Below are positions 569 through 22,728 of a stretch of 22,728 nucleotides of DNA, piece after piece. Numbering within the stretch: the first letter of the stretch is position 1; every line of letters begins with the position of its first letter. The notes under the pieces were generated by a model. That model was not told the origin of the DNA, made no database searches, and was given only the letters and a program-made list of their open reading frames with translations. Source of the DNA: Catajapyx aquilonaris (lineage: Eukaryota); assembly GCA_000934665.2 (NCBI GenBank), contig KZ538312.1, forward strand, positions 62,001 through 84,728, written 5' to 3'. The translations under genes and the position numbers were made by a program.

Positions 569-751
569 ATGTCGGGGGCGGGTCAGCCGTCGAGCAGCGC
601 TCTGAGGGCGCTGGCCCTGGAGTACAAGGGAGTTCAGGAGGAGCCAGTCGAGGGCTTCCGGGTCAGGCTCATCTCGGAGGAGAACCTGTTCGAGTGGGAG
701 GTGGCCATCTTCGGACCTCCAGACACCCTCTACCAAGGAGGATACTTCAAG
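569..751 (+). CDS. UBE2R2: UBE2R/CDC34 coding exon 1 ([20 protein letters not shown]...[13 protein letters not shown])
   Basis: ATG at 569, 61 codons, donor AAG|GTATTG at 752, phase 0. Contains the E2 N-terminal motif W.VAIFGPP.T.Y.GG.F. Confidence 0.95.
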
Positions 752-3700
752 GTATTGTATATATCTACCGGATGAGAAAGAAAGAAAGGGGGGAAAAAAA
801 AGAAAGGGAGGAGGGGGGGTTGGTAAAACTGGGGACTGTTGGCTGCACTGGGGGGTATAGTTGGAGCCACACTTACCTTTAAAAAAGGCCAGTTGGCACC
901 CCTGTGGTTGGAAGGACTGGTGAGAGTACTGTTGGCTATNNNNNNNNNNNNNNNNNNNNNNNNNNNNNNNNNNNNNNNNNNNNNNNNNNNNNNNNNNNNN
1001 NNNNNNNNNNNNNNNNNNNNNNNNNNNNNNNNNNNNNNNNNNNNNNNNNNNNNNNNNNNNNNNNNNNNNNNNNNNNNNNNNNNNNNNNNNNNNNNNNNNN
1101 NNNNNNNNNNNNNNNNNNNNNNNNNNNNNNNNNNNNNNNNNNNNNNNNNNNNNNNNNNNNNNNNNNNNNNNNNNNNNNNNNNNNNNNNNNNNNNNNNNNN
1201 NNNNNNNGGGGGGGGATATAGTTGGAGAGTTGGACAAAAAAAAGTCTGAAGTGTTTGTTTTTTTGTTTGTCCAGGTTTGGTTGCCATTTCCTGGTGATAC
1301 AAGAGGACGAACAAAGGAGCAGATGAAACTTGAATTTTGTCTATTGTTATAAAAGACTTTGTCCACGGTTTGGTGTGTCGTACCTGCTTAGTTAGTACTC
1401 ATGCAAGAGGAGGAACAATCATTGCCTTCTATTTCATGGCCATATGAAGACAAACAAACAAACAAACAAACAAACAAACAAACAAACAAACAGTACCATC
1501 TCTTCATAACACTGGACAGTGCAGCAAGTTTCCGCTGCATCGAGCAATGGCTGGACTGAGGTTGTGCCTAATTTGTTTGTTTGTTTGTCCAGGTTTCACG
1601 ACTGCTTCATACTCAATACATGAGGACGAACAAACATTGCCTTTTAAAACAGCTCGTGGCCAAACAAAGAAACATACCGTCTTTTGTAACGCTAGGCAAT
1701 ATTACAATCGGACAACGGCTGTACTATGAAATTGTGCCTAATTTGTTTCTTTGTTTGTCCAGGGTTGGTTTTATGCACATGTCGTACCCATTTATACAGA
1801 GCACAAACAGGCAGACAAATGGTAAAGCCGTTGCCCGATGCAGCGGAAACTTAATATTGTCTTAGTGTTATAAAAAACGGTATGTTTCTTTGTTTGTCCA
1901 GGATTTTTTTCTGCACGCTTTGTACCTATTCCATGCTCATGCACAGGACAAACAAATGCAGCATAATTTTCCATGACATATGCGCGTGTAACATGTCGAG
2001 CAGAAACTTGTAGTTTAGCGATTAGTTTGTAAATTCTGTTTGATGTCTGTGCGTGGCGGGGCACGTCTGTTCCAAGACATGCTCAAGCCAGGCGTGCGGT
2101 TGGGGAATTATTGCTTGGCCCAAGCGCAATTGTTGCACACCTTTTTCTTTGACTCGATGGTTTTTTGCCTGAATTTCTCCTTGCCCAATTTTTTTGGGGG
2201 GGTTTTTAATTGTTGCCAGGAGTGTGCCCCCCCCCCCCCCCCCNGCAGGTTTCCTTTCCAAACCACACAACAGGGGTAAAGGATACCAGTCAGGGCCAGC
2301 TGGCAAGTGTTTTGCATTGCGGCACAAGGTCTTGACCACCGCACCTTGCCAAAAAAGTAAACTCTCAGGAAAACCTTTTGCAGGCTGCGAGCTGTAACCT
2401 GCCACAAACAAAGCTGTGTCGCACTAGATTGGGAAATTGATCAAGCGTTATACAACTTGGATTAATAAATAAGATTTTTTTGCAGCAGCCCAGAAGCAAA
2501 ATGCCAGGAAATTAAATGTAGGTTGCACGGTTGTGTGTGTGTGGAAAGTTTGGAAAAATTGAGGCAAGCCGTGCGAACGAAATAGGGAAGAGTAACTTGG
2601 GTGTTGCGGGAGGGTGTTATTCAGGTGTTGGTTTCAAGGTGGCATGGCTTGCGTTGGAGAGAGAGAGAATGTCCTTGATGATCACCTGTTTTGTGTGGGT
2701 AAAACACTTTTAGGGGGGGGAAGCAAACTGCCTCCCACTTCTTATCACCTGACTTCTCTTTTTTTTCCATTTCCTTCTTGATAGCGGAGGGCGCTTCAGG
2801 GGGAGAAAAACTTTGGAAGCTAATTTACCTAAATGTCTCACAGTGCATGTCAGCTTCTTTTTTTTGGGGGGGGGGGGNNNNNNNNNNNNNNGGGATTTGA
2901 GTAAAACTGACAAAAATTAGATTGCCAGATGTAATGAGCCTGTTTCTTGTTTTATATGTACAGTTATTTTTTAACCAATTTGTACAGTTAAATATGAAAA
3001 TGTACAGATGTACTATGTCGCTCAAAAAGAGAGACGATTTTGCATTGAAAGCAAAATGCAAAATGGTCTCCCACCTTTTTGAGCGATATAGTACATATTG
3101 TTCACTAAAGCTGCTGTACCTTTAATGCGTATTCACTACTTGCTGCCCTATTGTACAACCTGATTTGAATGAGAATGCAATGAGTAAAGAGCAATTGATC
3201 AATGTAGCTTCAATGAACAATAAGCAATCTTGACAATTTGATATCATTGCCATAAAAAAATGCAATATCCAGTTTATAGATTTTTTTAATTTAAAAAAAG
3301 CACGTTGTTAGGGTCGATCCCATTATTTTATCAGCTGTGGCGGATTTGAACCTATAGAAGTGATGCGGATTTAACAAGTTGTTGTTGTTTTTTTTTGTCG
3401 CCCCAGTTTTGGGCGAGCAGGAAGAGAGAGAAAACTAAGGTTGACCTGGAAAAATTTCTGGATTCCCCCAACCAACTCACATGTTTTTTTTTTTTTAGTA
3501 TTATTAATTCGCCCTNTTGGTCCGTTGTGTGACCCCCAAAAAGCAGGTCCTACACGGTATTTTTAAAAGTGGAAAAGGTCAGTTGATAGTCAAGAGCAGA
3601 ATTTTTTTTTAGCATAAAAAAAAGAGAAAGGGTTGATTTTTATATACATAGTATATAAATGGCGATGGGATTTGTGGGTCGCAGAGAGTGAAAAAATAAA

Positions 3701-6700
3701 TCGTGCGAGCCATTTTCTCCGCTCTCGTTATTCCGACTGCTTGTTACTGGTTCATACCCAAGAATTTAATGGAGAGGTTTGTTGAGTGCAAGTACACCAC
3801 AAAATGGCTGCTCTCTGCCTTGACTCGTTTGCGGAAAATTTTTTGGCAACACTGTTTGGACGTAGGCGCTCTGACCACTACTGCTGCTCTCAGTGCAGGG
3901 AAAAGTAGTACTACATGCACGTTGGTGATGTTGCGCGGACAAAGCCCACCCTGGTGCTATAACCTCCATTGTGACCGCTATGTCCTCTTAATGTATTGTT
4001 GAACTGGGAAAGTGAAGACTATAGGGTATAGGCGATGAGTCAACACGGACAAATAAGCGGACAGACAGAATAAGGGGATAAATAGTATCTGAGATTAGTC
4101 AAAAGAAATGGGGGTCGCTTTTTCTTCAGCAATGTTTGCGATAAATGAAATCATGTGTTTTTTCCTTTAGAATCGAGTTTTTTTTTTACGATTCAATTCA
4201 CTTGCATTGCGATGAAATAGAGCGATAAAAATGTGTAATTATTTTGTTGGGGGGGTGTGCTGCGCTTCGAAATGCTTCCCCCTCCCCTGGCAGCCCATTG
4301 TACGCCTCCAACTCGAGGTGACATATTTCGCAGGCTCGTGATCACGGAGGCGTTGCAATGTGGTTGTGGAAGCGCGCGAGAGCAATGTGTCACACTTTTA
4401 CTCCTTTGTTGTTGTTGTTTGCACCTTCCTCTCACTTGGCTTCGCAATTTGCAATAAAAGGAAATCAAGGGCGGAAAGACAAAGGAAGATCTCCTTTGTG
4501 TCGACCAACTCTTCAACAAACAAACAAAAATGTGTGTCTGTGTAAACCCATGTGGGGGTTGTTCCAGCAGTATGAGTCAGAAGACATTGCATGGGAATTA
4601 TGATCTGAGCGCACAATTTTTTTCGTCTGTTTGGTGCTTGTCGTGACTAGACGTCACAATGATGAGTATAACAATGTGTGACGGTCTCTACTTAGAAGGC
4701 ATTATACAATATATATGTCGAGCAGGATAGAATGTTGGCCACGTGCCCACACGTGATACGATGTGCGTTGCTTGCTATTCGGTTAACGCAAAACATCCTG
4801 TGTACACACACATACACATTTATTGCGCAGGGGGTCCTTTGCGTCGTGTTGTAGCAGGTACAATGTATGTCGACACTGTTCGTCACAACGACGTCAGAAG
4901 CCAGGTTCCATTTTTTTTTTTTTTAACCTTTTAAGAGGCGTGAATGACTTTCTTTGTTGTTGTGAAGGCCCGATAAGGTGATGCACCTTGTACAGTATAT
5001 ACTCTTCTCGGTATACAGCAGGACAATCGCATCGATGACAATGGAAACTGAGCGAGAGAGGACGTCACACCATGTACTCATTCAGTATACTTCGATCATT
5101 GACTTTTTAATAAGTGGAAAATTGGTCTGGTGTCGCGCGCAGTTTTATTTTAAGTCGAATTGGTGTCGGGGTCGCGATTTTTTTTTTGTTATAAACATTT
5201 TGCGCAACTTTGTTCGGCCAGCTCCAATCTTTTATCTCTCCAAACCTACATAGAGAGGAAACAACAACAGTGAGAGACAAACAAGAAAAGTGCGTGTGTG
5301 CACATTATGTATTGTGTAACAGATAAGGGAGCTCGTGGCAATATTTTTAAAAATGTAAATGCAGATGGCCTTTTATTTTTGTGTGTGTGTGTGTAAAGTT
5401 GCGTTATTTACACGTACTGTACATAGTGTTGGTACACGTTCAATGCAATGTTGGCCTTGGGGTGTTCAGGAAGAAGGTTGAAGGGATGGGTCCTTGGAAG
5501 AAGTTAGAAGGTCACTTGTGTGGTTGTGTGAGGCCAAACCCTCCTTTTTTTGCATGTTTTTTTATAATTGTCTATTTTTTTATTTTTGCACGATTATGAC
5601 CTTTTCCGATTTATTTATTTTTTTCAGGCACATTTGAAGTTCCCTCCAGACTACCCTTACTCTCCACCCAGCGTACGGTTCCTCACGAAAGTATGGCATC
5701 CCAACGTTTACGAGGTGAGTGCACAATTATTCATCTCTATTTGGAATTTTTTTTGCGCGAACTGCAGTGTGCCAAATATTTGGCACGCGCAAAAACCAGT
5801 CGATTTGCATGACGTAACTATATTATTTGCATTTTATATAGTCAGCGATTATTTACACGGCATATCTGAGCTGCCGATATGGATGAGCAAATTTTTTCCA
5901 GACTAGCCTTTTCCAGCTGTTTTTTTTTTTGCGAATTTGTTGATCGCACGTGGTTGTTTCTCTTGCAAAAAAAAATAACTAATAAACGAACCTTTTTTCA
6001 GTATCGATTTCGGATTGTTGTGTGCGTTTTTTTGGCAAAATGTTGCGTAGGTAATTGTTGAGACAACATTTGCAAAAAAAATAGGGGGGTATTTTTGGCA
6101 CCATTTTTTTTTTTCTGCGAAGGGTACGAGGGGTTATTGATCTCTCTTGGAAGCGACCCCGTATATTCCGGGACCGGATTATCTCTACTTGTTATAAACC
6201 AGGTCGAGCAAGTTTTAGACCCAAGCTTGTTGAAATAATAATGAAAACTGTGGTTTTTAAATTGTTTTTTTTTTTCTGCATCTGCGCATGTCCACTTGAT
6301 TGTTCGGACTAGCAACCAAGCAACAATTTTCTCCCTTGGGTTTGTTGTTTCTGTTTAGCACTGGTAGCTAAATGAAAGTCGGCGATTAACTGCAGATTAA
6401 CCGATATTGTTGGAAAGTAATTGGTGGTTTTTTTTATACCGTTTGTTTTTAAATACCCCGCAAGTGCGACGCCCTATATTTTTTTGCGGTTATAAAAAAA
6501 AAGCACGCGGGGCATGACCAGCACAATTGCACGTTTTTTTTGTGCGCATGTTTTTTAGTTACGTCACATATACACACACACGGTATTATAATCAGATTAA
6601 AAAATGTGTTGTTGTACACTTTCAACAACACATTTTTTAATCTGATTATAATTAAAAATGTGTTGTTGTACACTTTCACAACACCGCCCGGTGAGATAGA

Positions 6701-7755
6701 GTCTGCCTGGGGGATTGGTTGTTTACGTCGCCCCTGTCAACACTCCAGTCAGTGACCAGCTGCCCGTCTGAACAGTCGCAAGTTCTGGGTGTTCCTGCTT
6801 CATCATGGCCAATACACCGTCGCCTGCGTTCAGCTGCTTACTAGTTGTTTACATTGTATGATTGTACGTTTTGTGTATATGTGTTCATATCATTTATATC
6901 ATATTCATCCCTTTCATTAACCTCTGCGTGGCCTGACCATCCACCAGAGTGTCATTTTGTAGGTCATACGAGGGGGACAGGGGCAACCTGTACTCCGCTG
7001 GCTACCCCTCTATGGGATTATTTTGCCGTGAAGTAAATGAAAATAAATGAAATGTTGTTGTACACTTTCGAAACAATTAGATTCCGGCGCATGGCAACCG
7101 GCCGCTTAGCAACAAGATTTTCGCACAGCTCTATTTTGCCATGTGTCGACTTTTTTTCGCATAAAAATTAATAAACATGAAAACGGGCTCTGTCCGTCTG
7201 TCTGTGAGCAGGTATAGTAGGGCCAAAGTAGGGCCTTAAACCGCAAGGGATATCAAACAAACGGGTTTTCGGATTCAATTTGAGAGAGAGAAAAAGTCGA
7301 CTCGAATCGTGATTGTGCCAAACTCGTAGAGTCCGTTCACCTGGCGCATGCGTGGTGCGACCCCCATTGCGTTTTCTTGCCCGGATTGTTCCGGCACGTT
7401 CCGGATTCGTTTACCTGGAGGCTATGTCCTGATGAGTGTTTCGTTTTTTTGTTTTGTTTTGCGAAAGCACCCAGTAAGTGCTTATGGATGTTTTGGTAGT
7501 TTCCCCAGCTCCCCGTTTTGTTTCCCATGAAGGTCTGAACTGGGGGGGTTTGTGTCGTGTGGGGAGAGAGAGGTTGCCAGTTCGTTGCCCTTCAAAACCC
7601 TGCGGGGGAGTTGAGGTGGGTGATGGGGGGGCGGGACTGGGTATGGTACACTCGGTACCGCTCAGAAGTGTTTTGAGACATATTGTACCCTGCAACACTT
7701 CCTGTGAATATAGAATCCCGTTCAATGTCGGAATATGACCGTGAAGGAACCTTGG

Positions 7756-7804
<49 letters not shown>

Positions 7805-10800
7805 CGATACAAAAACCACAGTTGATATTTCTGACTCTCCTTTTTTTTGTTAAATAGTGTGAATGTCAGGTACTGTGCACAAGAACCGGTTTTAAAGAGA
7901 AGCAACCGCAATGCTGCACCCTGGGAGAACAATGCCAACTGAATTTTAATCGTTGTTGACAATTTATGATCGACAATCGTGGCACGTAGGAACCTGGAAC
8001 CAAAAAAACAACAACCAAGGGATTTCTCAATAATAATTGCAAACGTGCCGAATGTGTACTGTACCCATATCGGCACTTTTTTTTTTTTTTTAAGAGAGAA
8101 ATCAAGAGAGATCGTGGAAATCAGAGAGACATTTCTTTGAAAGTGATTGCACTGCGTGCATGGGTAGATAACGGTGACCTTCCAGTCGTCTGATAACGGA
8201 ATGCGTCGTTTTTTTTTTTTCGGTGCAATTTTAGGTGCGTGTTGCGTCAATTTCGCTGCGTAAAATTTCCGCCAAAATTTAGGCGATGACGTCAGAAAGT
8301 GCAAAGAGGATTTATTTTATTTTTTAAAAGGCGTTTTATCGGTAACTCGAGGTAATCCCTCCCCACGGTTTTTTGGTGCTAAGACTGAGGGATTTAACGC
8401 TTATGGTTTTAAATGGGATTTAACGCCCGAGTTTTGTTTTCCTACATAATATATAGGAGGGCGGGCCATCAGGGATTTAACAGAAACTGCGTGAAATTCT
8501 TCGTCTGGTATATGGTACAGTACTGGCCAATATTAATCGAGGCAACGACTAGCGACATTTTCCCCGAAGCGGCAGAAGAAGGAATCTTGCTCGCCCAGCT
8601 TGTAGCATGCTTATCTTCGATTCCTTCTTCTGCCGCTTCGGGGAAAATGTCGCTATAGTCGTTGCCTCGATTAATTGGCCAGTACTGTACAACTAAAAAG
8701 GCATGTCTGCTGGGCAAAACAGGCCTTTTAACCCTCAAGAGAGACCGGAGAGCCGATACATCGGTGGCTGTTCTGTATATAATATTTTTAGGTCGACCCC
8801 ACGTGCTTCTTGATGAAAATGTAGGCATTTTTTTTTTCTGACAAAGATGTCCGTAGACTGTGGTTTTCCCTGGGCTTGCTGTAGACTTTTTGTCAAAATG
8901 CTCTCTTGAGGCGGGTTTTAAAAAATCATCGCGGAATGCGACGGACCGTGCCTGGCAGGGCCACAAGTACTGGTGCGGTCACTCCAAGGCCATACACCAT
9001 GGCGCACTGCTTTTCATACGTACTGTATGTGATATCTGCGGGTAGGTGACGCACGTATTTTCCAGGTAACGTTGGTGAGTTTCGAACCCCCACGTGACGT
9101 GCAATGACGCTGCCAGATACGATTTTTGCCCTTGTCGAGACACAGAGAGAGAGAGAGAGAGTCCAATAGTGAGAAGCCGTTGACCCCTTTTGCTTAATTT
9201 TCCATGGTGTGCTTTTTTTCACAACGGTACTTCTTTTTTTCTCTCTCTCTGGGCCTTGCCCTGTGCCTGCCTCAAGGTTAACTGTTGGTAGTGGGGGGGG
9301 GGGGGNGGGGGGGGGTTATAGTGACGTGACCTCTCTCTCTCTCTCTTTGAAACGGATTTATTTGAATGGGGGTGCGCGCATGCAGCAATGAGAGAGAGGT
9401 CATGACCTCGGGAGGCTCTGTCGTGCCTTGGCATTCGGGTTGGTCTATTTTAGGTTGTTGCCAAACCCCCCCTTCCCTTCCTCCCTCCGCGAGATAGAAA
9501 TCTAGTGACGTCACGGGTCAATATTTTTATTTTTTAAATATATCAAATTTGTGGTTTGCAGTGCTCTGTATTTTTAGCTTTTTGTATGTACACCTCCCAG
9601 AGCGGACCATCGGAGCGCCGAATTTTTTCCTTGTCTTGTACAGCTCAAGTTCGACGCAGGTCGATTCATCAGACGCCCCCCCACCACCACCAACCATCAC
9701 CAACCAGACTGCGACGCGTCGCGATATTTATAGCAAAAGGCGTCTCTTGCTGAATTTTGCGTAACTTTTGNCCCCCCCCCCCCCATTGCATGGCCCCGGT
9801 TGTAGTGTTGTCTGGGCCTGCAACAATGTGCAAGGCCATTGCCACGCATTCGGTTGCACAACCCAAGATCGATTTGTGTGTATATATACCCGCGGGTTTT
9901 CAGCATGCCGAATAGTATAGTTACGACACAAAAAGCGCCCTTGAATATTGGCAACGTCATTTTTTTTTTGCGGATCTAGAGACGTCAGAGGTCGTTACCT
10001 GTGGTCAAAGTGTGACCTTCTGTATTTTTTTTAAAATGGCTATAATTTATTGCACCTTGCGGGTTTCTCCTAATAGGCTTATTCTCTCTTTGCTGATGTT
10101 TGTCCGACCCTGACAGTGCCGCCGTCTCTCGCACGACGCGTGGCAGGAGTGTCCGGAGGGAGCTTGCGCCATCTGTGCCTGAAAAATAGTACCGTGTGGT
10201 AAAACCGGCGGGCGATCTCATTTTCACCGTGCTAAACCCGGTTTTTGTGTGTGTTTTTTATTGCGAAAAATCCTCAGTTTTCATTGTTGGCGACAATGGT
10301 TTTTGCAATGGCAATTTCTTGTTATAATATAACCGAGGTTAAGAAGTCATGCTGATGGGCTCGGTGAAACTGGCTCTAAAAGTCGTTTTGATTTGTCACT
10401 CTCGCACTGATTATTATTAGTGCCAATTTTTTTTTTTTGGCAATGAGTTTTTATAGTTTGAATAGATTTGTGCAAATTTGATGTTTGAATTGACCCGGAC
10501 CCAATAAATTTGGGGCAAAATGTGGGGTGCGCAGTGAACCTACATAACACTGAAAAGGGCGCGCGCGTTCCCAAATTTAGGCCAAGGTTGGACCCCCCCA
10601 TCCTCCACACCCACAGCTCGTAACCCTAGAGTTGCGAAACCCCCCCGATTGGCGATCCAACTTTTTGGGGGGCGGATGGGTTTTTTTAAAAAAATGTGGA
10701 AGGACAGAGATTTGAGATGTAAGTCCAAATTGCAATGTTTGCCTCCTTTTTTTTTTGGCAATGTCCCTCCCAAAATAATTTTTTTTTTTAAATTGACAAA

Positions 10801-13800
10801 ATTCTCTGAGGCCTTGAACTTTGCTGACGCTGCAGTGCGGTGTTTACACTGGTGGCGAATAGCAGGCTGGCAAAACTTACCAAATTTGTGCCAAATTGAC
10901 TTTGATTTTAAAATTTTTGGGCAAAATTAGCAATTTGGCCTTGGCCTATAGTAGCAATCAGCTGGGATGGCCCTTTTTTTTTTCTCTCTCTCTAGGATGA
11001 TAATCGTTCTGTGCTATCGATTTCGCCAGCAATGATCTCCTCCAAACTTTTTGCACACTGAAGCTGGAATGAAATACATGGTTGCAACTTGCAAAGTTTA
11101 GTTGGAAGAAATTTTTTTTGGTGGGCCGTCCACAGTCTCCTTTGTGCACCTTTTATGGGATTTGGCGAAGATTATTATTTTGGGGGGGTGCATTGCGTTT
11201 GTCGTTGCAGAGCAAGTTTGCGTCGCAGGTAGCAAAAGCACATCGGAATGATCTGCGGGAACTAAATTGTAGTGATTGACACCCTGACGAACGCAGTGTT
11301 TTTAAATTAATAATTTTTATCCCCCCAGTAAGTTGTGCATTGTGAGGGATACGCAGTGTTCAATTAATAATAAATAATTTTTATATCCGGCAAGTTATGT
11401 GTTGTGAGGGATGCGCAGTGTTAATTGCGAGTAAGTAAATAAATAAAATGCCAAGGAGACTAGAGCATGCGTCCTTTCCGGCCGTGAATTTGAAATAAAA
11501 GTTGTAATTGGCGTCATGCTGCGGCCCGTAATTATCATTAGATGAGGGTTTTTTTCCCCCCCTAATGCTAGGTTTTGCATTTTAAAAAAAGTGAAACTCT
11601 CTCTCTCCCACCATTCCATCCGCTATTCTCATAGCTTATGAAAAATCAAGTTGCAATTTTTATGCAAAAGTGCTTGTGGGAGAGAAGGAACTTTCACTTC
11701 TTACTCTTTACGGTGCTTCAATTTTTATGCCAGGTATAGCCTTGCATGTTGCCGTGTTGCATTGTAACGTCTCCGCAGTCCGTCACACGCATTCGTGAAA
11801 GTTCAGGCTTGGTTTGACCGAGCTCTTGTTACAAGTGTAGGTAAGAGTCAGACATCCGGAACTCTCAAAAAAATGTCCATCGCACGCACTTTTAAAACAT
11901 AAGCCGACTTGCCCCCCTCGCATGCAAATAACTTCATTTTGGTGCCAGTTTTCACCTGACGTTGCGCAATTCGAAAGTTATGAAAACTCTTTGCCGGACA
12001 GTGCTGCGAATATTGAAACAAAAGCGTGCTGCAATCGCTTGGAATTAGAGTAATTTTTTTTTTGGCGATTGTTATGTTTCGTGAGTAAACATATTTTTTT
12101 CCAGGCACGCTTCATTTTTTTTTTAGAGTTGCAGATTTCTCCCCAGCATGTTTTCTGCTATTGTGCCGGCTGCAACTTGGAGCACCGTGTTGTGCATTGG
12201 TTGCCATGGTGTCCGTTACCTGTCATGTACTGTCAGAACTATTTTAATGATGTGAACCAGACCGCACTAAACTTGGGGACCGGCCATTTGTTTTTCTGCA
12301 GTGCCTTTCAAAAAAAATGAATGCGCAAACACTGCCTGCCGTTGTTTTCCCGGTCAATTTTAAAAAACCGGCGTGCCCACGAACTTCCAAGAATTTTTGC
12401 CTGCCATTTGCCATTTGATGCTCTGCAGAAAGTGTATGTTTCCCCCCCCCCCGGTGCCATGGGAACGTCTTTAACATCAAAAGCACTGTACGCATTTTTT
12501 CTGATCCGACTCTTTTTTTTCTTTCTTGCAGAATGGTGACCTCTGCATCTCGATACTCCACCCACCAGTGGACGATCCTCAGAGTGGCGAGCTGCCCTGC
12601 GAGAGATGGAATCCAACCCAGACTGTTCGGTGAGGCGTTTACGAAAAAGACGTCAAAAAATTCTTTGCGTGCCACTTTTTCCTACCTGTTGGACGAGGGA
12701 GGGCAGGATATATCTATGCAAGGCGACGGATAAGGATCCGGCCAGTTTTGTGTCTGTTGCCATGGAGGCGCTGGGATTAAATGTCGCAGCCTCATTTTTG
12801 CGGGACCAAAACGTGGGATGCTTCTGAGCTGTTTGGCCAAAGGATCGGGTTGATAATGGGTGCTGCTGGTTCCCATGACGACTTGTGTCGCTGTGGGGGG
12901 AGATTTGATTTCTCTTTTCTTTTTTTGTCTCGTGGAATTGCTCATGCCGGCTGGATTCACTTTTTCGTGGAGGCCAAATAACTTGCTCAGAGGGTAAAGC
13001 AAGCAGACGCTCTGTATCGGGCTGTATTATTAATGCCCTTGCGAGAGTTGGTTTCGGAGCCAGAAATAGAAACCGCTATACGTGTCTATACGTGTAAGTG
13101 GATCCCCTAAAAGTGCTTCGGCCGCATTGGGGGGGGAGCTTCCAGGCTAATTGAGACAGCCCGTGTGCATGATTGCGTTATGTCGCAGTCCGCACTCTTC
13201 CAATCTTAAATTAATTGGCAGCATTTTAAAAGTCGTTGAATAATACGCAGACCTTTGCTTTCATTATTTTCACCTTGCATTTGCAAGGGAAGGCCCTGCT
13301 TGTGCCCTTCCTCTCCCAATGCGGACTCTATTTTGGGACTAGATCATTATTCCAATAGTTTTCGTAAGGGTCACGTTCAGGTGTGCTGCTTTGATAGTGG
13401 GCGCAGCGTGTTTATGCTATTGCAAAGTACTCTTAAGTGTTTGTTTAATTCGGCGGATTCTGATCAGTGCGGGTTCACTGTCGTAGAACTTTGCTCCTGA
13501 CAATAACCCTCCCGCCCATTCATGATCTATTGCTGGAACCGTTGACATGGCGACGACCTCTACTGCGGACTCTCCTGGACCGCGTTTTTTCCTCCCCCCC
13601 ACATTGCGTAACCTTTTCGCTGCTCAGGTTGGCACATCCAATAGCGAAATGTGCAATGAAACGAGAGTAGGGAACGTCTCATGTGAAAAGGACTTAACCA
13701 GCCCGTGCCATCTGAATCCGCCTCAGCAGTTGCCATAGGGATCTGCTGACGTCTTGTACTTACATCTGAGCCGTTGCCATACTAGGCCGTCCCAACGCAA

Positions 13801-14454
13801 TTCACTCTCGCACACACGCATATTTATTTATTCATTTAATACCCCGTCATGTGGTCTTACACCTCGTTACGCATTGTCATAATAGGCCGACAGACCTGTC
13901 GTAACATACTTATTGATGGTGCTAATGTACGCGTTTTCTTCCCCTTTTGGTTTGACCTGGACAATGGGGACGATGCAGCACCATCCTGTTGTCTGTGATC
14001 TCCCTCCTGAACGAGCCCAACACATTCAGTCCGGCGAACGTGGATGCGTCGGTCATGTACCGCCGGTTTAAGGACTCCAAGGGGAAGGACAAGGAGTACG
14101 AGAACATCATCAGGTTTGTGTGCGGCTCGGGGTTGAGTTTGCGGACTTTGGAACTTGACATTTTTTTTCTTCTGGATTCGCAGGAAGCAGGTCCAGGCGT
14201 CGCTTCAGGAGGCGGAGAAGGACGGAGTGGTCGTCCCCACCACCTTAGAGGACTATGTGGTGAAGACCCAGGTCAAGCCGCCGGAGAACTCGCTGGACAT
14301 GACGGACTTTTACGACGATGACTACGACCTGGACGATGACGACGAGGACGAGGACGACAGCAGCAACAACAACACTGGTGATGATGGAGGGGACGCCGCT
14401 TCGGAGGAGGGCGAGTACGAGGACGCAGATGATAGTGGGAACGGGGAGTCGTGA
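569..14454 (+). CDS. UBE2R2: Ubiquitin-conjugating enzyme E2 R (CDC34/UBE2R family), whole spliced CDS, 5 exons, 774 nt, 257 aa
   Basis: Exons of 183+87+98+135+271 nt join in frame through GT-AG introns. The protein has the UBC fold with HPN motif, the catalytic Cys in [10 protein letters not shown], the Cdc34 acidic loop ([16 protein letters not shown]) and an acidic tail ending DDSGNGES. It is probably a single invertebrate co-ortholog of CDC34 and UBE2R2. Confidence 0.96.
940..1207. other. Assembly gap (268 N); a second gap of 14 N at 2878-2891
   Basis: Run of N. A similar GGGGG(A)TATAGTTGGAG motif occurs on both sides, which suggests an unresolved repeat. Confidence 0.99.
1250..1960. repeat. 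Nest of degenerate direct and inverted repeats with TTTGTTTGTCC...GGAC(A/G)AACAAA hairpin cassettes
   Basis: Cassettes at about 1262-1315, 1358-1419, 1572-1635, 1750-1809 and 1889-1956. Inverted pairs: 1658-1697 with 1861-1899, and 1526-1551 with 1827-1852. Confidence 0.75.
1451..1492. repeat. (CAAA)n microsatellite, about 10 units
   Basis: Read directly. Confidence 0.95.
5628..5714 (+). CDS. UBE2R2: UBE2R/CDC34 coding exon 2 ([29 protein letters not shown])
   Basis: Acceptor TTTTTTTCAG|, donor GAG|GTGAGT, 87 nt, phase 0/0. Contains the FP.DYP..PP and HPN motifs. Confidence 0.96.
6585..6684. repeat. Perfect 30-bp inverted repeat (6585-6614 / 6623-6652, 8-nt loop) followed by a partial direct copy
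   Basis: ATTATAATCAGATTAAAAAATGTGTTGTTG-tacacttt-CAACAACACATTTTTTAATCTGATTATAAT. The core TGTTGTTGTACACTTTC recurs at about 6661 and 7053. Confidence 0.9.
7759..7802. repeat. (GA)22 microsatellite
   Basis: Read directly. Confidence 0.97.
8518..8687. mobile_element. 170-bp palindromic non-autonomous Tc1/mariner-type element (MITE) with TA target-site duplication
   Basis: TA|CAGTACTGGCCAA...TTGGCCAGTACTG|TA. Arms of about 69 bp (8518-8586 / 8619-8687) differ only by two 2-nt indels, with a 32-nt spacer. The terminus resembles the Tc1 TIR start CAGTGCTGGCCAA. Confidence 0.8.
11291..11425. repeat. Degenerate tandem repeat, unit about 60 bp, about 2.3 copies
   Basis: CGCAGTGTT...TAATTTTTAT...AAGTT.TG..TTGTGAGGGAT units start at about 11291, 11350 and 11413. 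Confidence 0.8.
12532..12629 (+). CDS. UBE2R2: UBE2R/CDC34 coding exon 3 with the catalytic Cys (TGC 12544-12546) and acidic loop
   Basis: Acceptor TTTCTTGCAG|, translation [32 protein letters not shown](R), donor CG|GTGAGG, 98 nt, phase 0/2. This frame is absent from the ORF track. Confidence 0.96.
13979..14113 (+). CDS. UBE2R2: UBE2R/CDC34 coding exon 4 ([44 protein letters not shown])
   Basis: Acceptor ATGCAG|, donor AG|GTTTGT, 135 nt, phase 2/2. Contains the conserved SLL.EPN..SPAN motif. Confidence 0.95.
14184..14454 (+). CDS. UBE2R2: UBE2R/CDC34 terminal coding exon 5 ([24 protein letters not shown]...acidic tail...DDSGNGES*)
   Basis: 70-nt intron, acceptor TTCGCAG|. Encodes the Cdc34-type VPTTL.EY extension and acidic tail; TGA at 14452-14454. 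Confidence 0.95.
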
Positions 14455-15774: not shown

Positions 15775-17135
15775 TGAGGATTTTTTTTTAAAAAAAAAGG
15801 AGGAACATTGTTCAAGCGAGAGAGAAAACAAGTGGGTATGTGTGATAAAAAGACTTCATGATAAATGTCAGTGTTGTTAACGAAATGTTTGGGGAGGGGT
15901 TTTTTTTCCCCGTTGATTAATTTTATCTGTGCTAATTATCGTGGGGGGCAGGGAGGGGAGCGTCACCATAACTACAGTTAATTTTTTAAATGGATGTGTT
16001 GTTGTTGTTGTTTTTTTTTTGTTTAAATGCGGAGGGAGTTTTGTACCAATCGGACTATCCCGCAAAGAGAAGAAAAAAAAAACTTTTGCCATCCACAAGT
16101 GTTTTTTCTTTTTCTTTTAAAAAGTGTTTCCCCCATCAGAATTGTGATGCACTCGTATATGTAAAAAAAATAAGCTCATTTTTTTGGGGTGATATTAATT
16201 ATTATTATTTTTTTTTTTTGCCTTTTCGCCCACCCACATTTTTTTTTTTTTTTTATGAATGAAAAGTATTGTTGAGTAGTGTTTCGGAGGGAGAAAATTT
16301 CGAAGCAAGAAGTGCACGGTAGATAATCGACTGATCTTTGGGAGACAGCTAAGGATTTTTTTTTTTAAATAAAAAAAAGGATATATATTTGCTCTTTAAA
16401 TGTCACAACTATAGTAGTCGGTTGGTGCCAAGTGAAATTTTTTTGAAGAAAAGAAAAGGAAAAAAAATTTGCTAACCAGTCGAATAGCTTTTTTTTCCCC
16501 CCCCCTGGGAATGTTGTTTGCTATAGGTTGTACTTGGTGTAAATTTTAATTATTCTTTTGAAAAGCTCATAACAGGGTGTGTGTGTCGTCTCGTTAAAAA
16601 AAAACGAAAGGGAGTGATTTGATATACCAACCTGTGTCCCCCCCGCCCCATCTGCCCGACACCTTTTTTATACGATCGTGCCACCCTGAGAAGCCGCTTT
16701 TGAGCTCTTTAATAATTACAGTTTGTTTTTTTTCCTAAGGGACTTAAAGACGACATTTCCAATTGTGTGTGCTTAACAAGCGTCGCCCAAAGAATGTATC
16801 TTCTTTGTTGTGTCATTTCGAAATGCAAGTTGGTGATTTTTCGACTTTCCCTCCCCCCCCCCATCGTCACATGCGTCCCCCACAAATATGAAGACTTCAA
16901 AGTAACATACCCTCCCGCCCCAAAAGACAAAAGTCATCAAAAAAAAAAAACTCGTCCAGACGTTGTTTCATCACATTTTTTTTTTTTTGATCAGTGTATA
17001 AAAAAAACATGACTAGAGCAAAAAATAGTACAGTGTGTTGAATTATTTCTTGTGAGCCAAGTGTCCGAACCTTTTTTCCTTACTGTACCTTTTCCCTCCC
17101 TCTTTCCCCCCCCGTTTCCTTCCCGCTGCGGACAG

Positions 17136-17347
17136 GAAGCCGGTCGACGTCTGCGGCGACCACTGCGAGCTCAAAGATGAGACGAAAGCACTCCTGCAAG
17201 TCCGCCGGCCTAGGTCAAACCAACACAAAAGTGCCCGTCCGCAGCTCACCCCATCCTCCACCTCCTCCGCCGTCACAGAGCGTCCATCCACAACCCATAC
17301 CTGCCGCCACCAACAACTGCCATCCGCAGGTTCAAGTACTTCTGCCG
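17136..17347 (+). CDS. Putative alternative exon 5b of UBE2R (KPVDVCGDHCELKDETKALLQVRRPRS...SAGSSTSA)
   Basis: About 55-nt polypyrimidine tract, then GACAG|GAAGCCGGTC. Open in the phase-2 frame left by UBE2R exon 4. Donor G|GTAAGG at 17348. Confidence 0.55.
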
Positions 17348-17416
17348 GTAAGGGATTGTGCGGGCAGCTGGAGTTAACGGAGCATGACAAAATCTTTTTT
17401 TTTATTTGAACGTTAG

Positions 17417-17718
17417 GATCAAGCAGAATCCCAGGAGCCCCCGCCGGATCCCTCGCGGACAGGTCAACCGTAGACCTAAGCAGCTCGTCCCTCAGGGGAA
17501 GGAAAAGGCCGTCCTCGGGCGGTCCGACCATTGCAACCGTCGCCACCGAGAGTGCCGCCAGCCCCTTGTCGTCATCCACCTCCAGCCTTACCTCCGACCC
17601 CGTGAATACCCCAAGCCCTTCCGCTGAAGCCGCCTTAGACAGTTCCGACACCGGCTCAGACGAGTCCATACCCGACACCGCCAAGAAGGTGAGTCGGCCC
17701 AAGCAGCAGCGGATGTGA
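17417..17718 (+). CDS. Putative alternative terminal exon 6b of UBE2R (Ser/Pro-rich; ...LRGRKRPSSG...DSSDTGSDES...KQQRM*)
   Basis: 69-nt intron containing an in-frame TGA, acceptor TTAG|. The frame stays open for 100 codons to TGA 17716-17718, followed by an AATAAA cluster. Confidence 0.55.
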
Positions 17719-17843
17719 AGAAGTTCTCCCCGTTTAAATTTTTTTTTTTTTTTTTCGAGACCAAAAAAAAAGTTTGTCCCTTCACTTTTTGGACGCTCAG
17801 GATTCAATGAAGTTGGTTAAAACCCCATAGTAACAATTACGCT

Positions 17844-18078: not shown

Positions 18079-20984
18079 CTGCAGGGGGGGTTCAAATACA
18101 TTGTTTTCAGATGCAATGCTAACAATTTCCCGGAGGGATTTAAATCAAGCGAGACCTGTGTGCCAGCCTGTGCCGGATCATGAAGAACTTGTCGAGGTCC
18201 CCGCCGCTCTTCTGCTCGGCCACCATCGCCTTCTGCTTGGTCCTCTGCATCCTGGCCTCCTTGGGCTCCGGGACGTCGTACATCCGCATGTACGTCTTCT
18301 GGGTGTCCGGAAGGCAGCCCCTCAGCTCGGCGCGAAGGACGGGCACCGAGGATCCGACCCACTCCTTCGGGATTATGTGGAGGCGAGTGGTGGTGACCGG
18401 ACGGGGAAGAATAGTCACGTACTCCACGTTCGAGTCAGGTTTGGCTGTGTGGGTTGTCGTGTAGAAGGTTGCGTCCTGGCCGCGATGGTCCTGCAAATAC
18501 CATTTAGTGTCCGTACTTTCAGGTGTCGTTGTTAGCGATAAGTACCTTGTACACATGGTTTTGTCCGGAGTCTTCATAGTGAAGCTGGAATCTGGTGACG
18601 AGGGAGACGTTTCCTGCCGGGAGCTGACCACCCTTGAGGACCACCGTTGTGACCACATGCGGACCAGAGAGGAAGCGGAAGTGCAGGCCATTCGTCTTGA
18701 CCACCGCACCATGGCCGTCCATCATTCCCTCCAGGTCACTCACACGCACACGGGTCAAGTTCTGCCTGGATACAATGTGATGTATGGGAGCATACCTTTA
18801 GTGACATGTGACATACCTTATCAGTTTCGGTGGAGTCAGAGTGAGGGTAGTGCCGCAGTGTGGAGCCGAGTCGTCAAATGGGAAGGCGCGGCAGAGGTCG
18901 AGGTCAACCTTGATGAACGGAAGCTTGGACCAACTCTGCGGGTAGATCCTGATTGCGGTGGTCACCAGCGGGGAGGACAACTCAAAGATGACCATCCTGG
19001 ACGTTGACGTCTTTGGAAGCCTCCCGGAGTCAAACACCGCCTTCTGCAAAATTGCATGTTCACAAACATGTCCAGTGTCACACACACCATGACCTTTACC
19101 TGTCCTCCTCTGAACTGGTCGGTGACCCACACCCACTTTCCTGCGCTATAAATGTCCCTGGCTTGAACCCTGAACCTGATGGTCATCCCAAGCTTCTCGG
19201 ACTCCACAATCTTGATCCGGAAGATCAGTACGACTCCATGGAAGTCAGCCTCCAGGAAGTGACTCAGGTTCTCGTCTTTGCCTTGAAGGTCATCCGGCAT
19301 GGCCACACCATGCTCCAGGACAGTGGACTGGAGCAGTTCATCCGGAGAGTCAGACTGGGTGAACTTCACTTTGCCTATGTCTGGGAGAAGTGAGTGTGAG
19401 TCAAAAGTTGAGTACAATTTGACTGAACTAACCATCTTCTGAGAGCCATGAGTTTGGGTATCTGCACGTATGAAAGTCCTTGTAGTGCGGATTGAAGTGG
19501 AGGGTGTCGAACCTGTTGTATCCGACAGCCTTGCAGCCTGACACTTGTAGCTGTACCTGCGGGGCAAACCCTACCAGCTCTTTCGGACATACCCGTAGCG
19601 CCGAAGCCAACACCGGACTCTTCAGGACCACTTCAGACCAACTGTCCCGGACAGTTCCTTTGATGTCAAACAGCCTTGTCCGGCCCGTCGTTTCCTCCCT
19701 GACATACCGCCACCATCCTCCTGGAGACTCATGCTGGACGCTGTACCGCTTGACTGTCCCTCCGGAGCTGCCTCGGATCCTCCAGCCGGTGATGACCGCC
19801 AAGGATTCAGGTCCTCTGAAGTCAGCCCGGATACAGTAGACATGTCCAGAGTCCGGCCTGTACACAAACCGCTCAGCACCCGTGTCATCCACTGTCCACT
19901 CTCCGCCTTCTTCTTCCGGAGCACTCAGCATCACATAAGGAGGGGCAAGCCATTGAACCACTTCTGGATGGCATCTGAACCACGGAGCATCCCGATCTGG
20001 AAAGGTCAACAATGGTCTTCAACAGTACCCATTCAACAGTCATTGTCCTTCAATGCTTCTTCAAAGGTCATTGACCTTTAATGTGTCTCGTAATGGGTCG
20101 TTGACATTCTTTTACCTATGTGTCTTCAGAGGTCATTGACATTCTACTTTTACCGAGGTGTCTTCAAAGGTCATTGACCTATAGTGTGTCTCGTCAGAGG
20201 TCATTGGCATTCTTTTACCTAGGTGGTTTCAAAGGTCACTGACCTTTAATGGGTCTCGTCAAAGGTCATTGACATTCTTTTACCTAGGTGGTTTCAAAGG
20301 TCACTGACCTTTAATGGGTGTCGTCAAAGGTCATTGACATTCTTTTACCTAGGGGTCTTCAAAGGTCATTGACCTTTAATGAGTCTCGTCAAAGGTCATT
20401 GACATTCTTTTACCTAGGGGTCTTAAAAGGTCATTGACCTTCAATGTGTCTCGTCAAAGGTCATTGACATTCTTTTACCTATGTGTCTTCAGAGGTCATT
20501 GACATTCTACTTTTACCGAGGTGTCTTCAAAGGTCATTGACCTATAGTGTCTCGTCAGAGGTCATTGACCTTTTCCCCATGTGTCTTCAAAGGTCACTAA
20601 CCTCAATGTGTCTCGTCAGAGGTCATTGACATTCTTTTACCTAGGTGTCTTCAAAGGTCATTGACCTTTAATGTGTCTCGTCAAAGGTCATTGACATTCT
20701 TTTACCTAGGTGTCTTCGAAGGTCATTGACCTTCTTTTATCAATGTTTGTCTTCAACAGTCATGTTGAAGAAGGTCAATGGACTTCGAAGAAGGACAATT
20801 TCAATTGAAGTTTCGTACCGTCCAGTACAACAGAGTAGTTGACCACTCGGACAGGCTCCTCCTGGACAATCTCAGATCCTCTTCTGACCAGATACATCCT
20901 GGCGCACCTCCTACGGGACAGTCCACGAACGCCATATCCGGACGCCACCAGCCAGGCCACTACCAACGCCAAAATCGTCCTCAT
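17961..20984 (-). CDS. Secreted protein with three tandem discoidin (coagulation factor 5/8 type C) domains, 7 exons, about 636 aa (602 aa if exon 6 reads to its own stop at 18140)
   Basis: Exons 20984-20819, 19996-19433, 19380-19100, 19043-18817, 18765-18546, 18490-18156 and 18078-17961 join in frame via GT-AG introns (822, 52, 56, 51, 55, 77 nt). There is a signal peptide (MRTILALVVAWLVASGYG). Three Cys-bracketed repeats end PVLASALRVCP...QLQVSGC, PLVTTAIRIYPQSW...KVDLDLC and PVTTTRLHIIPKEW...LRAELRGC. Confidence 0.85.
18156..18490 (-). CDS. Discoidin gene exon 6 (end of domain 3 and basic tail)
   Basis: Acceptor TTTGCAG|GAC. Encodes LPRPVTTTRLHIIPKEWVGSSVPVLRAELRGC, a typical F5/8C C-terminus. 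Confidence 0.85.
18546..18765 (-). CDS. Discoidin gene exon 5
   Basis: Acceptor ATCCAG|, donor AAG|GTACTT, phase 2/0. Encodes LHFRFLSGPHVVTTVVLKGG...VTRFQLHY. Confidence 0.8.
18817..19043 (-). CDS. Discoidin gene exon 4
   Basis: Acceptor TTTTGCAG|, donor AG|GTATGT, phase 0/2. Encodes LSSPLVTTAIRIYPQSW. Confidence 0.85.
19100..19380 (-). CDS. Discoidin gene exon 3
   Basis: Acceptor TTCTCCCAG|, donor CAG|GTAAAG, phase 1/0. Encodes FLEADFHGVVLIFRI...FRVQ...W.WV. Confidence 0.82.
19433..19996 (-). CDS. Discoidin gene exon 2 (domain 1)
   Basis: Acceptor CCTTTCCAG|, donor G|GTTAGT, phase 1/1. Encodes IRADF...VITGWRIRG...VKRYSVQH...W.YV...LF...PVLASALRVCP...GC. Confidence 0.85.
20060..20735. repeat. 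65-bp (30+35) minisatellite built from 21 AGGTCA-N-TGAC(C/A)T IR1 palindromes
   Basis: Unit consensus TCAAAGGTCATTGACCTTTAATGTGTCTCG + TCAAAGGTCATTGACATTCTTTTACCTAGGTGTCT. Degenerate copies extend to about 20001 and 20786. Confidence 0.95.
20819..20984 (-). CDS. Discoidin gene exon 1 (signal peptide)
   Basis: ATG at 20984, hydrophobic ILALVVAWLVA, donor G|GTACGA at 20818, phase 1 matching exon 2. Confidence 0.72.
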
Positions 20985-21148
20985 CGTGTCCTCAACAATG
21001 GAGGTCGCCAACAATAGCAATGCTTTCCATGGCGACGAGTTGACATTTTTTTTGGACACAGAGAGTTCGATTTTTTAATTATTATTTGGATCTGGTCTTG
21101 AGGTCGATTTGTCTGTTGTGAGGTCGAGGAAGATGAAGGAGATTGCAC

Positions 21149-21253
21149 ATGGCAATAGCTGGACTTCGAGGCATCTTCTGGGTGATTGTCTCCTTGCTTG
21201 TGATGTCAACACCTGCGTGGTTGGCCCCCGCTTTAGTCAGCATCCCTCTTCAG
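21149..21253 (+). CDS. Exon 1 of an uncharacterised secreted protein (MAIAGLRGIFWVIVSLLVMSTPAWLAPALVSIPLQ)
   Basis: ATG at 21149, signal-peptide-like sequence, consensus donor CAG|GTAAGT at 21254, phase 0. Too short for the ORF track. Confidence 0.65.
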
Positions 21254-21314
21254 GTAAGTTCATCCTCCTGATGGAATAAGGTGGGGTATATTGATGTTGT
21301 GTGTTCATCGACAG

Positions 21315-21785
21315 AGTGTGTTGAGCAACCAGCAGGAGAGGACGGCTGTGTCCGGACTATTGCCTGCAGCATCATCAGGGATGGACTACGAGGACACCAG
21401 GGTGGATCCGGACGACTACACGTACGAGGAGATGATGGAAGGACTGGAGCAGTTGCAGTCGATGGACGACACGGACCTGCAGCATGCCCCAACAGGGGAG
21501 ACGTCGGCCATGTTGTCGCAGAAAATGGTGGCACTGGAGGAGGAGATGGGTCGGGTGACCAAGCTGATGCGGGCAGAGAAGGAGGCCATCCAGAAGAGGA
21601 CGCTCAACCTGTACGAGGTGGTGCGTAAGATGATGGGGACCATGGAGGTGCTCAAGGAAGCCGCCAGCAAGGAGGAGCACGCGTCAATCCACGTCGTCGA
21701 CGCAGGCAGACGGAGGAGGGACAGCGACGTTGTGGCCGACGACTTCAAAGACAAGAGCGTCTGGATGGATGCCAAGCAGCAGTAG
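21315..21785 (+). CDS. Exon 2 of an uncharacterised secreted acidic/helical protein (191 aa total) with KR and G-RRRR sites
   Basis: 61-nt intron, acceptor CGACAG| in phase 0. Strong GC3 codon bias, TAG at 21783-21785, AATAAA 35 nt downstream. The exact acceptor is uncertain (other AGs at 21332, 21335, 21369). Confidence 0.75.
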   Translation, partial: SVLSNQQERTAVSGLLPAASSGMDYEDTRVDPDDYTYEEMMEGLEQLQSMDDTDLQHAPTGETSAMLSQKMVALEEEMGRVTKLMRAEKEAIQKRTLNLYEVVRKMMGTMEVLKEAASKEEHASIHVVDAGRRRRDSDVVADDFKDKSVWMDAKQQ

Positions 21786-21819
21786 GGCACTCACCACTGT
21801 TTATATACTTAACACGAGC

Positions 21820-21825
21820 AATAAA
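21820..21825 (+). terminator. Poly(A) signal of the 21149-21785 gene
   Basis: AATAAA shortly after the stop. Confidence 0.65.
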
Positions 21826-21949
21826 ATGCACGCTTTTATACATTTCAAATACATTTTTCAACAAACATCCATCATGAGCAACATCTCGGCTGTACTGTCG
21901 TCATCCAAAATGCAATTAATTCGTATGTGCAAAGAAATTAGAACAAATT

Positions 21950-22148: not shown

Positions 22149-22668
22149 TTACTCTGTGAGTTGGCTCAGCGAAGTGTACTTGACTCCATTAAGCTCAACT
22201 GATTCGAGTTTTTGGCATTTTGAAAAGAGGCTTGCCAGTCCATTCTTGGTGACTCGGCGAGAGGCTCTCAAGGAAATGCAGGTCAGCTGGGGACAGTTGG
22301 ATGTTAGCATGCCATCCAATCTGACTTTACGAATATTTCCTGCAGCAGCAACACACACAGCCTGTATTTCTCGGTCACAATTACTACCAGAAAACATTAC
22401 GTCTGTCAGTTTAGGCCAATTCCTTTCAATGGAAATGTCTAGAGCCACGCATGGATCATTTGCTGGGTCATAGAAATCCTCTTCATCATAGTGATAATAT
22501 CCTCTATACCAATAATATACTGTACGTAGATCACGTGCTAAATATGGATCAATTTCTAAACTCATAGTGATCTTCTCAAGGGTTGAACTTTGTGCGAACA
22601 CATCCAAGGGATGGGGTATATCAGCTGTGATGTACAAAGTCAGATTCAGCTCCTTAATTTCTTTGCAC
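22149..22668 (-). CDS. Terminal exon of a leucine-rich-repeat (RNI-like, FBXL-type) protein; 5' part lies outside the window
   Basis: Acceptor CTTACACTTACAG| (phase 2). Cys-containing LRRs: CKEIKELNL, WPKLTDVMF, CPQLTCISLRASRRVTKNGLASLFSKCQKLESVEL. No F-box is visible in the window. Confidence 0.7.
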
Positions 22669-22728
22669 CTGTAAGTGTAAGGGATCAATCAGAAATGCAA
22701 TTTGCCCGTAACATCAATAATTAACTCA

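Follow-up and report, generated by a model that had tools for sequence, protein, structure and literature searches.

A single-locus minisatellite of ecdysone-response-type palindromes in a predicted intron of Catajapyx aquilonaris

Can a tandem repeat that multiplies a steroid-receptor palindrome beside a promoter work as a natural hormone element, or does such an array merely record the sequence of its founding unit? This question is raised by a stretch of 22,728 nucleotides from the arthropod Catajapyx aquilonaris (assembly GCA_000934665.2, contig KZ538312.1, positions 62,001 to 84,728; hereafter called the window, in whose numbering all positions are given), in which the predicted first intron of a gene for a discoidin-domain protein is filled mostly by a tandem array of sites matching AGGTCANTGACCT, an inverted repeat of AGGTCA-type half-sites with a 1-bp spacer (IR1). 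Our answer, to which we give slightly less than an even chance, is that this local minisatellite works as a multimerised element for the ecdysone receptor EcR/USP. A more ambitious proposal we consider rather doubtful: the array would be a selected, copy-number-tunable ecdysteroid enhancer through which the moult controls two lineage-specific genes for secreted proteins, arranged head to head, and its strong and weak sites, in alternation, would shape the dose response.

The array contains 21 IR1 sites between 20065 and 20732. Ten are perfect AGGTCA-N-TGACCT palindromes (at 20065, 20168, 20233, 20298, 20363, 20428, 20531, 20559, 20655 and 20720), eight have the form AGGTCA-T-TGACAT with one mismatch (20130, 20263, 20328, 20393, 20458, 20493, 20620 and 20685) and three are degenerate (20095, 20198 and 20591); in total, 19 of the 21 are perfect or one mismatch off. 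The census of the original prediction, including its ten perfect sites, was thereby reproduced, and so was its spacing of about 30/35 bp, which we measured as 28-38 bp, mainly 30 or 35. Two further, worn sites lie beyond the 21, at 20037 and 20772. When the window was searched for AGGTCANTGACCT with up to two mismatches, 21 matches were obtained, every one inside 20065-20784, against 0.82 expected from shuffles, none of 100 of which reached 21; this test overstates the significance, because the tandem copies stem from one amplification event. With RGKTCA halves, furthermore, IR1 was the only paired geometry in the array (10 sites), and no direct or everted repeats with spacers of 0-8 bp, nor inverted repeats with any other spacer in that range, were found. 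Stops close all six frames and leave no coding role. By its sequence, the array fits the definition of ecdysone response elements (EcREs), with inverted AGGTCA-type half-sites and a 1-bp spacer, and it is a minisatellite, with a head-to-tail unit of 10-100 bp and variant units.

Each monomer carries one IR1 core, and the monomers fall into two types: A (n = 9, about 30 bp), eight of which have a perfect IR1, and B (n = 12, about 35 bp), of which eight have the TGACAT core, two a perfect one and two a further altered one. A and B alternate, so that a 65-bp dimer forms the higher-order unit, and 65 bp is also the repeat period found by TRF. A block of about 103 bp that recurs within the array (Table 1) points to block-wise turnover by unequal exchange. 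The remainder of the predicted 822-nt intron, to both its ends, is occupied by worn monomers: the left flank aligned to the 65-mer with a local score of 32.5 (0 of 1000 shuffles as high) and the reverse complement of the right flank with 31.5 (1 of 1000), while the best score among 523 other tiles of the window was 27.0. The monomer structure shows that a unit of about 30 bp with a perfect IR1 was amplified in place, as the original prediction proposed in speaking of tandem amplification, and then split into 30-bp and 35-bp variants, with turnover now proceeding by the 65-bp dimer and larger blocks. The indels all spare the cores; their positions are T-runs and TG repeats, and they were hence not counted as evidence. 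As a separate observation, six AG/GTAA words resembling recursive splice sites are present in B spacers (20223-20710, on the minus strand, which is that of the gene); recursive splicing at these words was set aside, the upstream tract being pyrimidine-poor as judged by eye.

The number of copies in the genome was judged from Logan contigs of four of five runs, three of which are DNA of one sample, perhaps the source of the assembly; the threshold for comparison was 80%, and copies less alike than this would escape detection. Among 41 contigs of the array locus in the three DNA runs, 39 were at least 99% alike, two were 95-99% alike and none was below 95%, and none of the 41 extended from the array into foreign DNA. 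Sequencing depth divided by assembled 31-mer multiplicity was 11-44 in the array (18 pieces listed) and 20-41 in the flanks, and a piece at 118x was accounted for by its 3.6 assembled copies; gaps in the cover of the array by contigs in the three runs carry no weight. A second copy of the array was not found within the window. The array is accordingly real, about as large as assembled and devoid of close copies elsewhere in the genome.

What would such an array do? The host being an arthropod, EcR/USP is the receptor to consider; the original prediction had called IR1 the optimal site for both EcR/USP and FXR/RXR, of which FXR need not be considered here. A symmetric IR-1 binds EcR/Usp with higher affinity than the natural hsp27pal element (PMC1885670), where IR-1 is termed idealised and non-natural and natural elements are described as degenerate, hsp27pal deviating at 5 of 15 bp. 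Given this published affinity, the ten perfect and nine one-mismatch sites would bind EcR/USP. With increasing hormone, reporters carrying multimerised EcREs change from being repressed to being activated (10.1101/2022.04.07.487542), and three EcR/USP sites with 17-bp spacers were, by the statement of the authors, the strongest configuration in their work on synthetic promoters (PMC8842121); like these engineered multimers, the array, if accessible, would repress at low hormone and activate at the ecdysteroid peak. Its position, furthermore, is promoter-proximal to two genes, which we count in favour of the EcR/USP reading. The array lies 252-919 bp from the ATG of the discoidin gene (20984), in line with the 250-900 bp given originally. 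With respect to a divergent gene on the plus strand it is upstream, at a distance of 349-1016 bp. The intron's own gene was taken as the target in the original prediction, and it is indeed a candidate, but the divergent gene is equally good; the likely target would be one or both members of the head-to-head pair with signal-peptide-like starts, 250-1020 bp away.

If the sites work, weak purifying selection would keep their hexamers less variable than the spacers, and the comparison of palindromes with spacers that the original prediction had called for went in this direction. Distinct substitution alleles numbered 5 in the 24 consensus sites of the hexamers and 21 in the 41 other sites; with all 21 units, the p value was 0.043 by a binomial test, 0.032 by base-stratified permutation and 0.075 by Fisher's test on variable sites. 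When a 6-1-6 window was slid over the unit, the lowest number of alleles (one) in the 65 placements was that of the A-type IR1; the B-type IR1, with four, is unremarkable. Variation returns at the centre base and just outside the hexamers (five alleles at six extended-palindrome sites, p = 0.033, post hoc), and this free variation around the hexamers fits a protein that reads hexamers better than it fits a hairpin. We take these numbers as a weak sign that the hexamers are under constraint.

Several points weigh against the EcR/USP reading. The p values are borderline, ranging from 0.016 to 0.076 over three tests and five counting schemes (among them the omission of edge units, of hybrid units or of the duplicated block, and the treatment of an allele that restores a perfect site as harmless), and they come from small numbers and from units that are mutually related and not independent. 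The spacers of the A and B consensus can also be aligned, so that old divergence between the two types adds little, and 10 of the 12 B units have retained a mismatch. Neither of the neighbouring genes was recognised as a known ecdysone target in searches for families and homologues. In the silkworm, the EcR motif was present in 41% of hormone-responsive enhancers and in 25% of non-responsive ones (PMC6109983), so that the motif is a poor predictor of hormone response. Also, an RNA-type contig (20716-20969; 254 nt, depth 2) passes the predicted donor at 20818 unspliced, and it may represent pre-mRNA, a promoter-side transcript or DNA. The 21 sites, finally, go back to one amplification event, so that a chance origin stays plausible.

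Such an origin is the substance of the alternative that we regard as quite possible, though well below an even chance: a neutral local minisatellite, in which the seed held an IR1 by accident, was multiplied by slippage and unequal exchange, and has no selected role, although receptor might still bind to it to no effect. Turnover by blocks is what typical minisatellites show, the conservation of the hexamers is borderline, and among many genomes surveyed many famous motifs would have drawn notice. At the composition found here, a perfect IR1 has a probability of 4.8e-8 per position; assuming 1,000-10,000 arrays per genome and a 32-bp unit, the number of arrays that would carry an IR1 by chance is 0.03-0.26 per genome for the RGKTCA type, but just 0.002-0.015 for a perfect one. 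As a control, we searched viral and prokaryotic collections for paired IR1-like sites 12-26 bp apart and found eight loci, three in viral contigs and five in contigs of prokaryotic genomes, mostly short tandem repeats, one being a 15-bp repeat in four copies. Phages, giant viruses and bacteria, where EcR is absent, thus have records with IR1-bearing short repeats, and this too tells against a hormonal role; repeat units of this kind do arise without EcR, though rarely. Three of the eight loci have two perfect sites and none has more, however, and the location of the array next to two gene starts, like the variation that follows the edges of the hexamers, speaks against neutrality. An exact 20-mer scan of metagenome contigs returned four loci, each with a single unrelated site. 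In the control, two longer arrays of mismatched sites were seen on contigs of bacterial metagenome-assembled genomes (L008, 1-2048, 26-bp unit; L011, 958-1138, 43-bp unit), and these contigs may be misfiled eukaryotic DNA.

The remaining alternatives accept the array as more than an accident, or place its origin elsewhere. The AGGTCA half-site is common to nuclear receptors, and another of them (an NR4A/HR38-type monomer, a COUP-TF/Seven-up dimer or a USP homodimer) might occupy the sites, resulting in competition or repression and not in direct activation by ecdysone. The extended half-site AAAGGTCA (8 bp), which we take to be the NR4A monomer element, is present 21 times in the array when the two strands are summed, but the base 5' of the hexamer that this form requires is changed in 6 of the 12 B units, and no FTZ-F1-type or ROR-type extensions and no direct repeats were found in the array; we consider this explanation improbable. 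A structural constraint, in which the palindromes pair and the intron folds, as an aid to splicing or as the source of a small RNA from the terminal hairpin at 20713-20791, or in which hairpin-templated repair keeps the cores uniform, appears to us distinctly improbable. The intron does fold far beyond its shuffles (z of -11.1 as RNA and -14.2 as DNA), the terminal hairpin has a folding z of about -5.7 on both strands, and the other predicted introns are merely 51-56 nt long. Any array of palindromes would fold in this way, however; a 1-nt spacer makes a poor hairpin within a single unit, and the extended-palindrome positions, which could pair as well, are variable. All six Rfam matches were sub-threshold (the best at 29 bits with a cut-off of 100, mir-192 at 26 with a cut-off of 54), and no known microRNA family was found at its gathering score. 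As for a dispersed satellite, which the original prediction had named as a refuting case, or a transposon-internal repeat of the foldback or MITE (miniature inverted-repeat transposable element) type, the ends of the intron are alike when one of them is inverted (score 34.5, reached by none of 1000 shuffles), a likeness that the worn monomers at both ends explain. Single-copy depth and the absence of foreign flanks make it unlikely that the array is a satellite dispersed in the genome or a sink for receptor: there is neither extra depth nor a loose contig end, and many copies elsewhere were not seen at the 80% threshold. A sink, which had also been suggested originally, is implausible, as 21 sites at one locus would be too few to titrate a receptor that has many others in the genome. 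We regard a dispersed element or a sink as highly unlikely, and the confinement of the array to one locus is established as far as close copies are concerned.

The gene model around the array is in part a prediction. In our model, the discoidin gene has six exons encoding 602 amino acids, with introns of 822, 52, 56, 51 and 55 nt; the small introns, given originally as 51-77 nt and now found to span a narrower range, were selected by splice consensus from many frame-compatible sets. The array makes up 81% of the predicted first intron, and its description as most of that intron was thus correct. The product has three divergent F5/8 type C (discoidin) domains (profile E values of 3e-12, 1e-7 and 6e-9), its nearest relatives are 25-32% identical and its best matches are proteins of Branchiostoma (25-30%); a word-indexed homologue search with exon 2 gave no matches. 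Homology starts only at residue 83 and does not span the junction of exons 1 and 2, and exon 1 is predicted from its signal-like start (11-residue hydropathy of 3.0, from residue 4), splice sites and frame. The first intron is likewise predicted from sequence, the only RNA-type contig there being the one that reads through the donor; this unspliced contig also overlaps the terminal hairpin. The RNA-type run has zero cover on exons 2-6, which says nothing on expression.

Table 1. Positions in the window of the array, its parts and the adjoining gene features
Feature	Positions	Strand	Description
Core minisatellite	20064..20756	none	21 monomers, one IR1 core each
Recurring block of about 103 bp	20095..20197		Order B, B (3 nt inserted), variant of A; second copy at 20458-20558, offset 363 bp
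Worn monomers	19997..20059		Up to the predicted 3' splice site; local alignment to the 65-mer
Terminal inverted repeat	20713..20791		24-bp arms, 92%; inverted worn monomer, inner palindrome
Predicted intron 1	19997..20818	-	822 nt, GT..AG, phase 1; discoidin-domain gene
Predicted exon 1	20819..20984	-	55 codons, hydrophobic signal-peptide-like start
Exons 2-6	19996-19433, 19380-19100, 19043-18817, 18765-18546, 18490-18140	-	Discoidin gene
Gap between head-to-head genes	20985..21080	none	Between ATG 20984 and contig 5' end 21081
Divergent transcribed gene	21081..21831	+	RNA-type contig 5' end at 21081

In the divergent gene, a 61-nt GT..AG intron (21254-21314) was seen spliced, and the longest frame, from the ATG at 21149, encodes 191 amino acids with a hydrophobic start and a GRRRR site. 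Devoid of Cys and acidic (isoelectric point of 4.75), this product resembles a peptide precursor or a gland secretion. The part encoded by exon 2 was searched and gave no homologue or confident family, the Atlas leads being unnamed and all <0.9; a Pfam match to LHH was below the cut-off. Both head-to-head genes probably encode secreted proteins, and the gap between them is presumed to be a promoter region common to the two.

Elsewhere in the window, a UBE2R2/CDC34 gene (569-14454, plus strand) has five exons and introns of about 4.9, 6.8 and 1.3 kb plus one of about 70 nt, and its large introns contrast with the tiny ones of the adjacent discoidin gene; its exon 1 has its best named matches in arthropods, at up to 88% (among the best 120 of 257 matches), for which reason amphioxus, a host suggested by the Branchiostoma matches of the discoidin protein, was dismissed. 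Nested direct and inverted repeats surround an ACAA microsatellite in its intron 1 (1239-1910), with arms of 40-48 nt plus 27 nt at 93%, and have a MITE- or foldback-like appearance; perfect inverted repeats in intron 2 (8532-8675, with 37-bp and 20-bp arms, and 6585-6652, with 30-bp arms) are possibly small MITEs. Frames rich in Ser, Thr and Pro, separated by short intron-like gaps (17042-17720, plus strand), converge on the 3' end of the discoidin gene, and the piece of them that was searched had no Pfam match. A leucine-rich-repeat exon with a weak LRR_4 match (22152-22728, minus strand) probably belongs to the end of a gene of the F-box/LRR type, which converges on the divergent gene.

The array can be compared with several known systems. 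The idealised IR-1 bound by EcR/Usp (PDB 1R0O, cited in PMC1885670) has the same inverted AGGTCA with a 1-bp spacer that is present here in ten perfect copies; while that element is non-natural, the perfect, putative binding sites described here are in a genomic tandem array. Tandem EcR/USP sites near a promoter are also the design of the 7xEcRE-GFP and EcRE-lacZ reporters (10.1101/2022.04.07.487542), and the three-site block of PMC8842121, with its period of 13 + 17 bp, has the 30-bp period of the A monomer. Those multimers are synthetic and their activity was shown, whereas the array is natural and evolving, with 21 putative sites in alternating perfect and one-mismatch cores. The 72-bp variable number tandem repeat (VNTR) enhancer in intron 5 of SIRT3 and the VNTRs of SLC6A4 (PMC12776774) are, like the array, intronic or promoter-near minisatellites in which the unit carries a binding site and the number of copies could determine the output, but they are mammalian, length-polymorphic and allele-specific in activity, and none of them, in the accessible portion of that paper, is a steroid-receptor palindrome. 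Alu elements with DR2 (direct repeat with 2-bp spacer) retinoic-acid response elements (PMC1785376) also multiply a consensus nuclear-receptor element by way of a repeat, but they are dispersed with one DR2 site each, while the array is tandem, single-locus and of the IR1 type. A natural minisatellite of ecdysone elements was not found in the literature searched, which takes in only a minority of the subscription journals and of the older papers on EcREs.

In conclusion, the array is real and confined to a single locus, and its sequence makes it a suggestive candidate for a hormone element. Should it prove inactive, it would be an ordinary minisatellite, remarkable for its seed. If it works, a single step, the amplification of one perfect site beside a promoter, would be enough to bring new genes under the control of a steroid, and the array would offer a natural system for asking how the dose response to hormone depends on the number of receptor sites, their strength and their spacing, and whether variation in repeat length tunes moult-linked expression.

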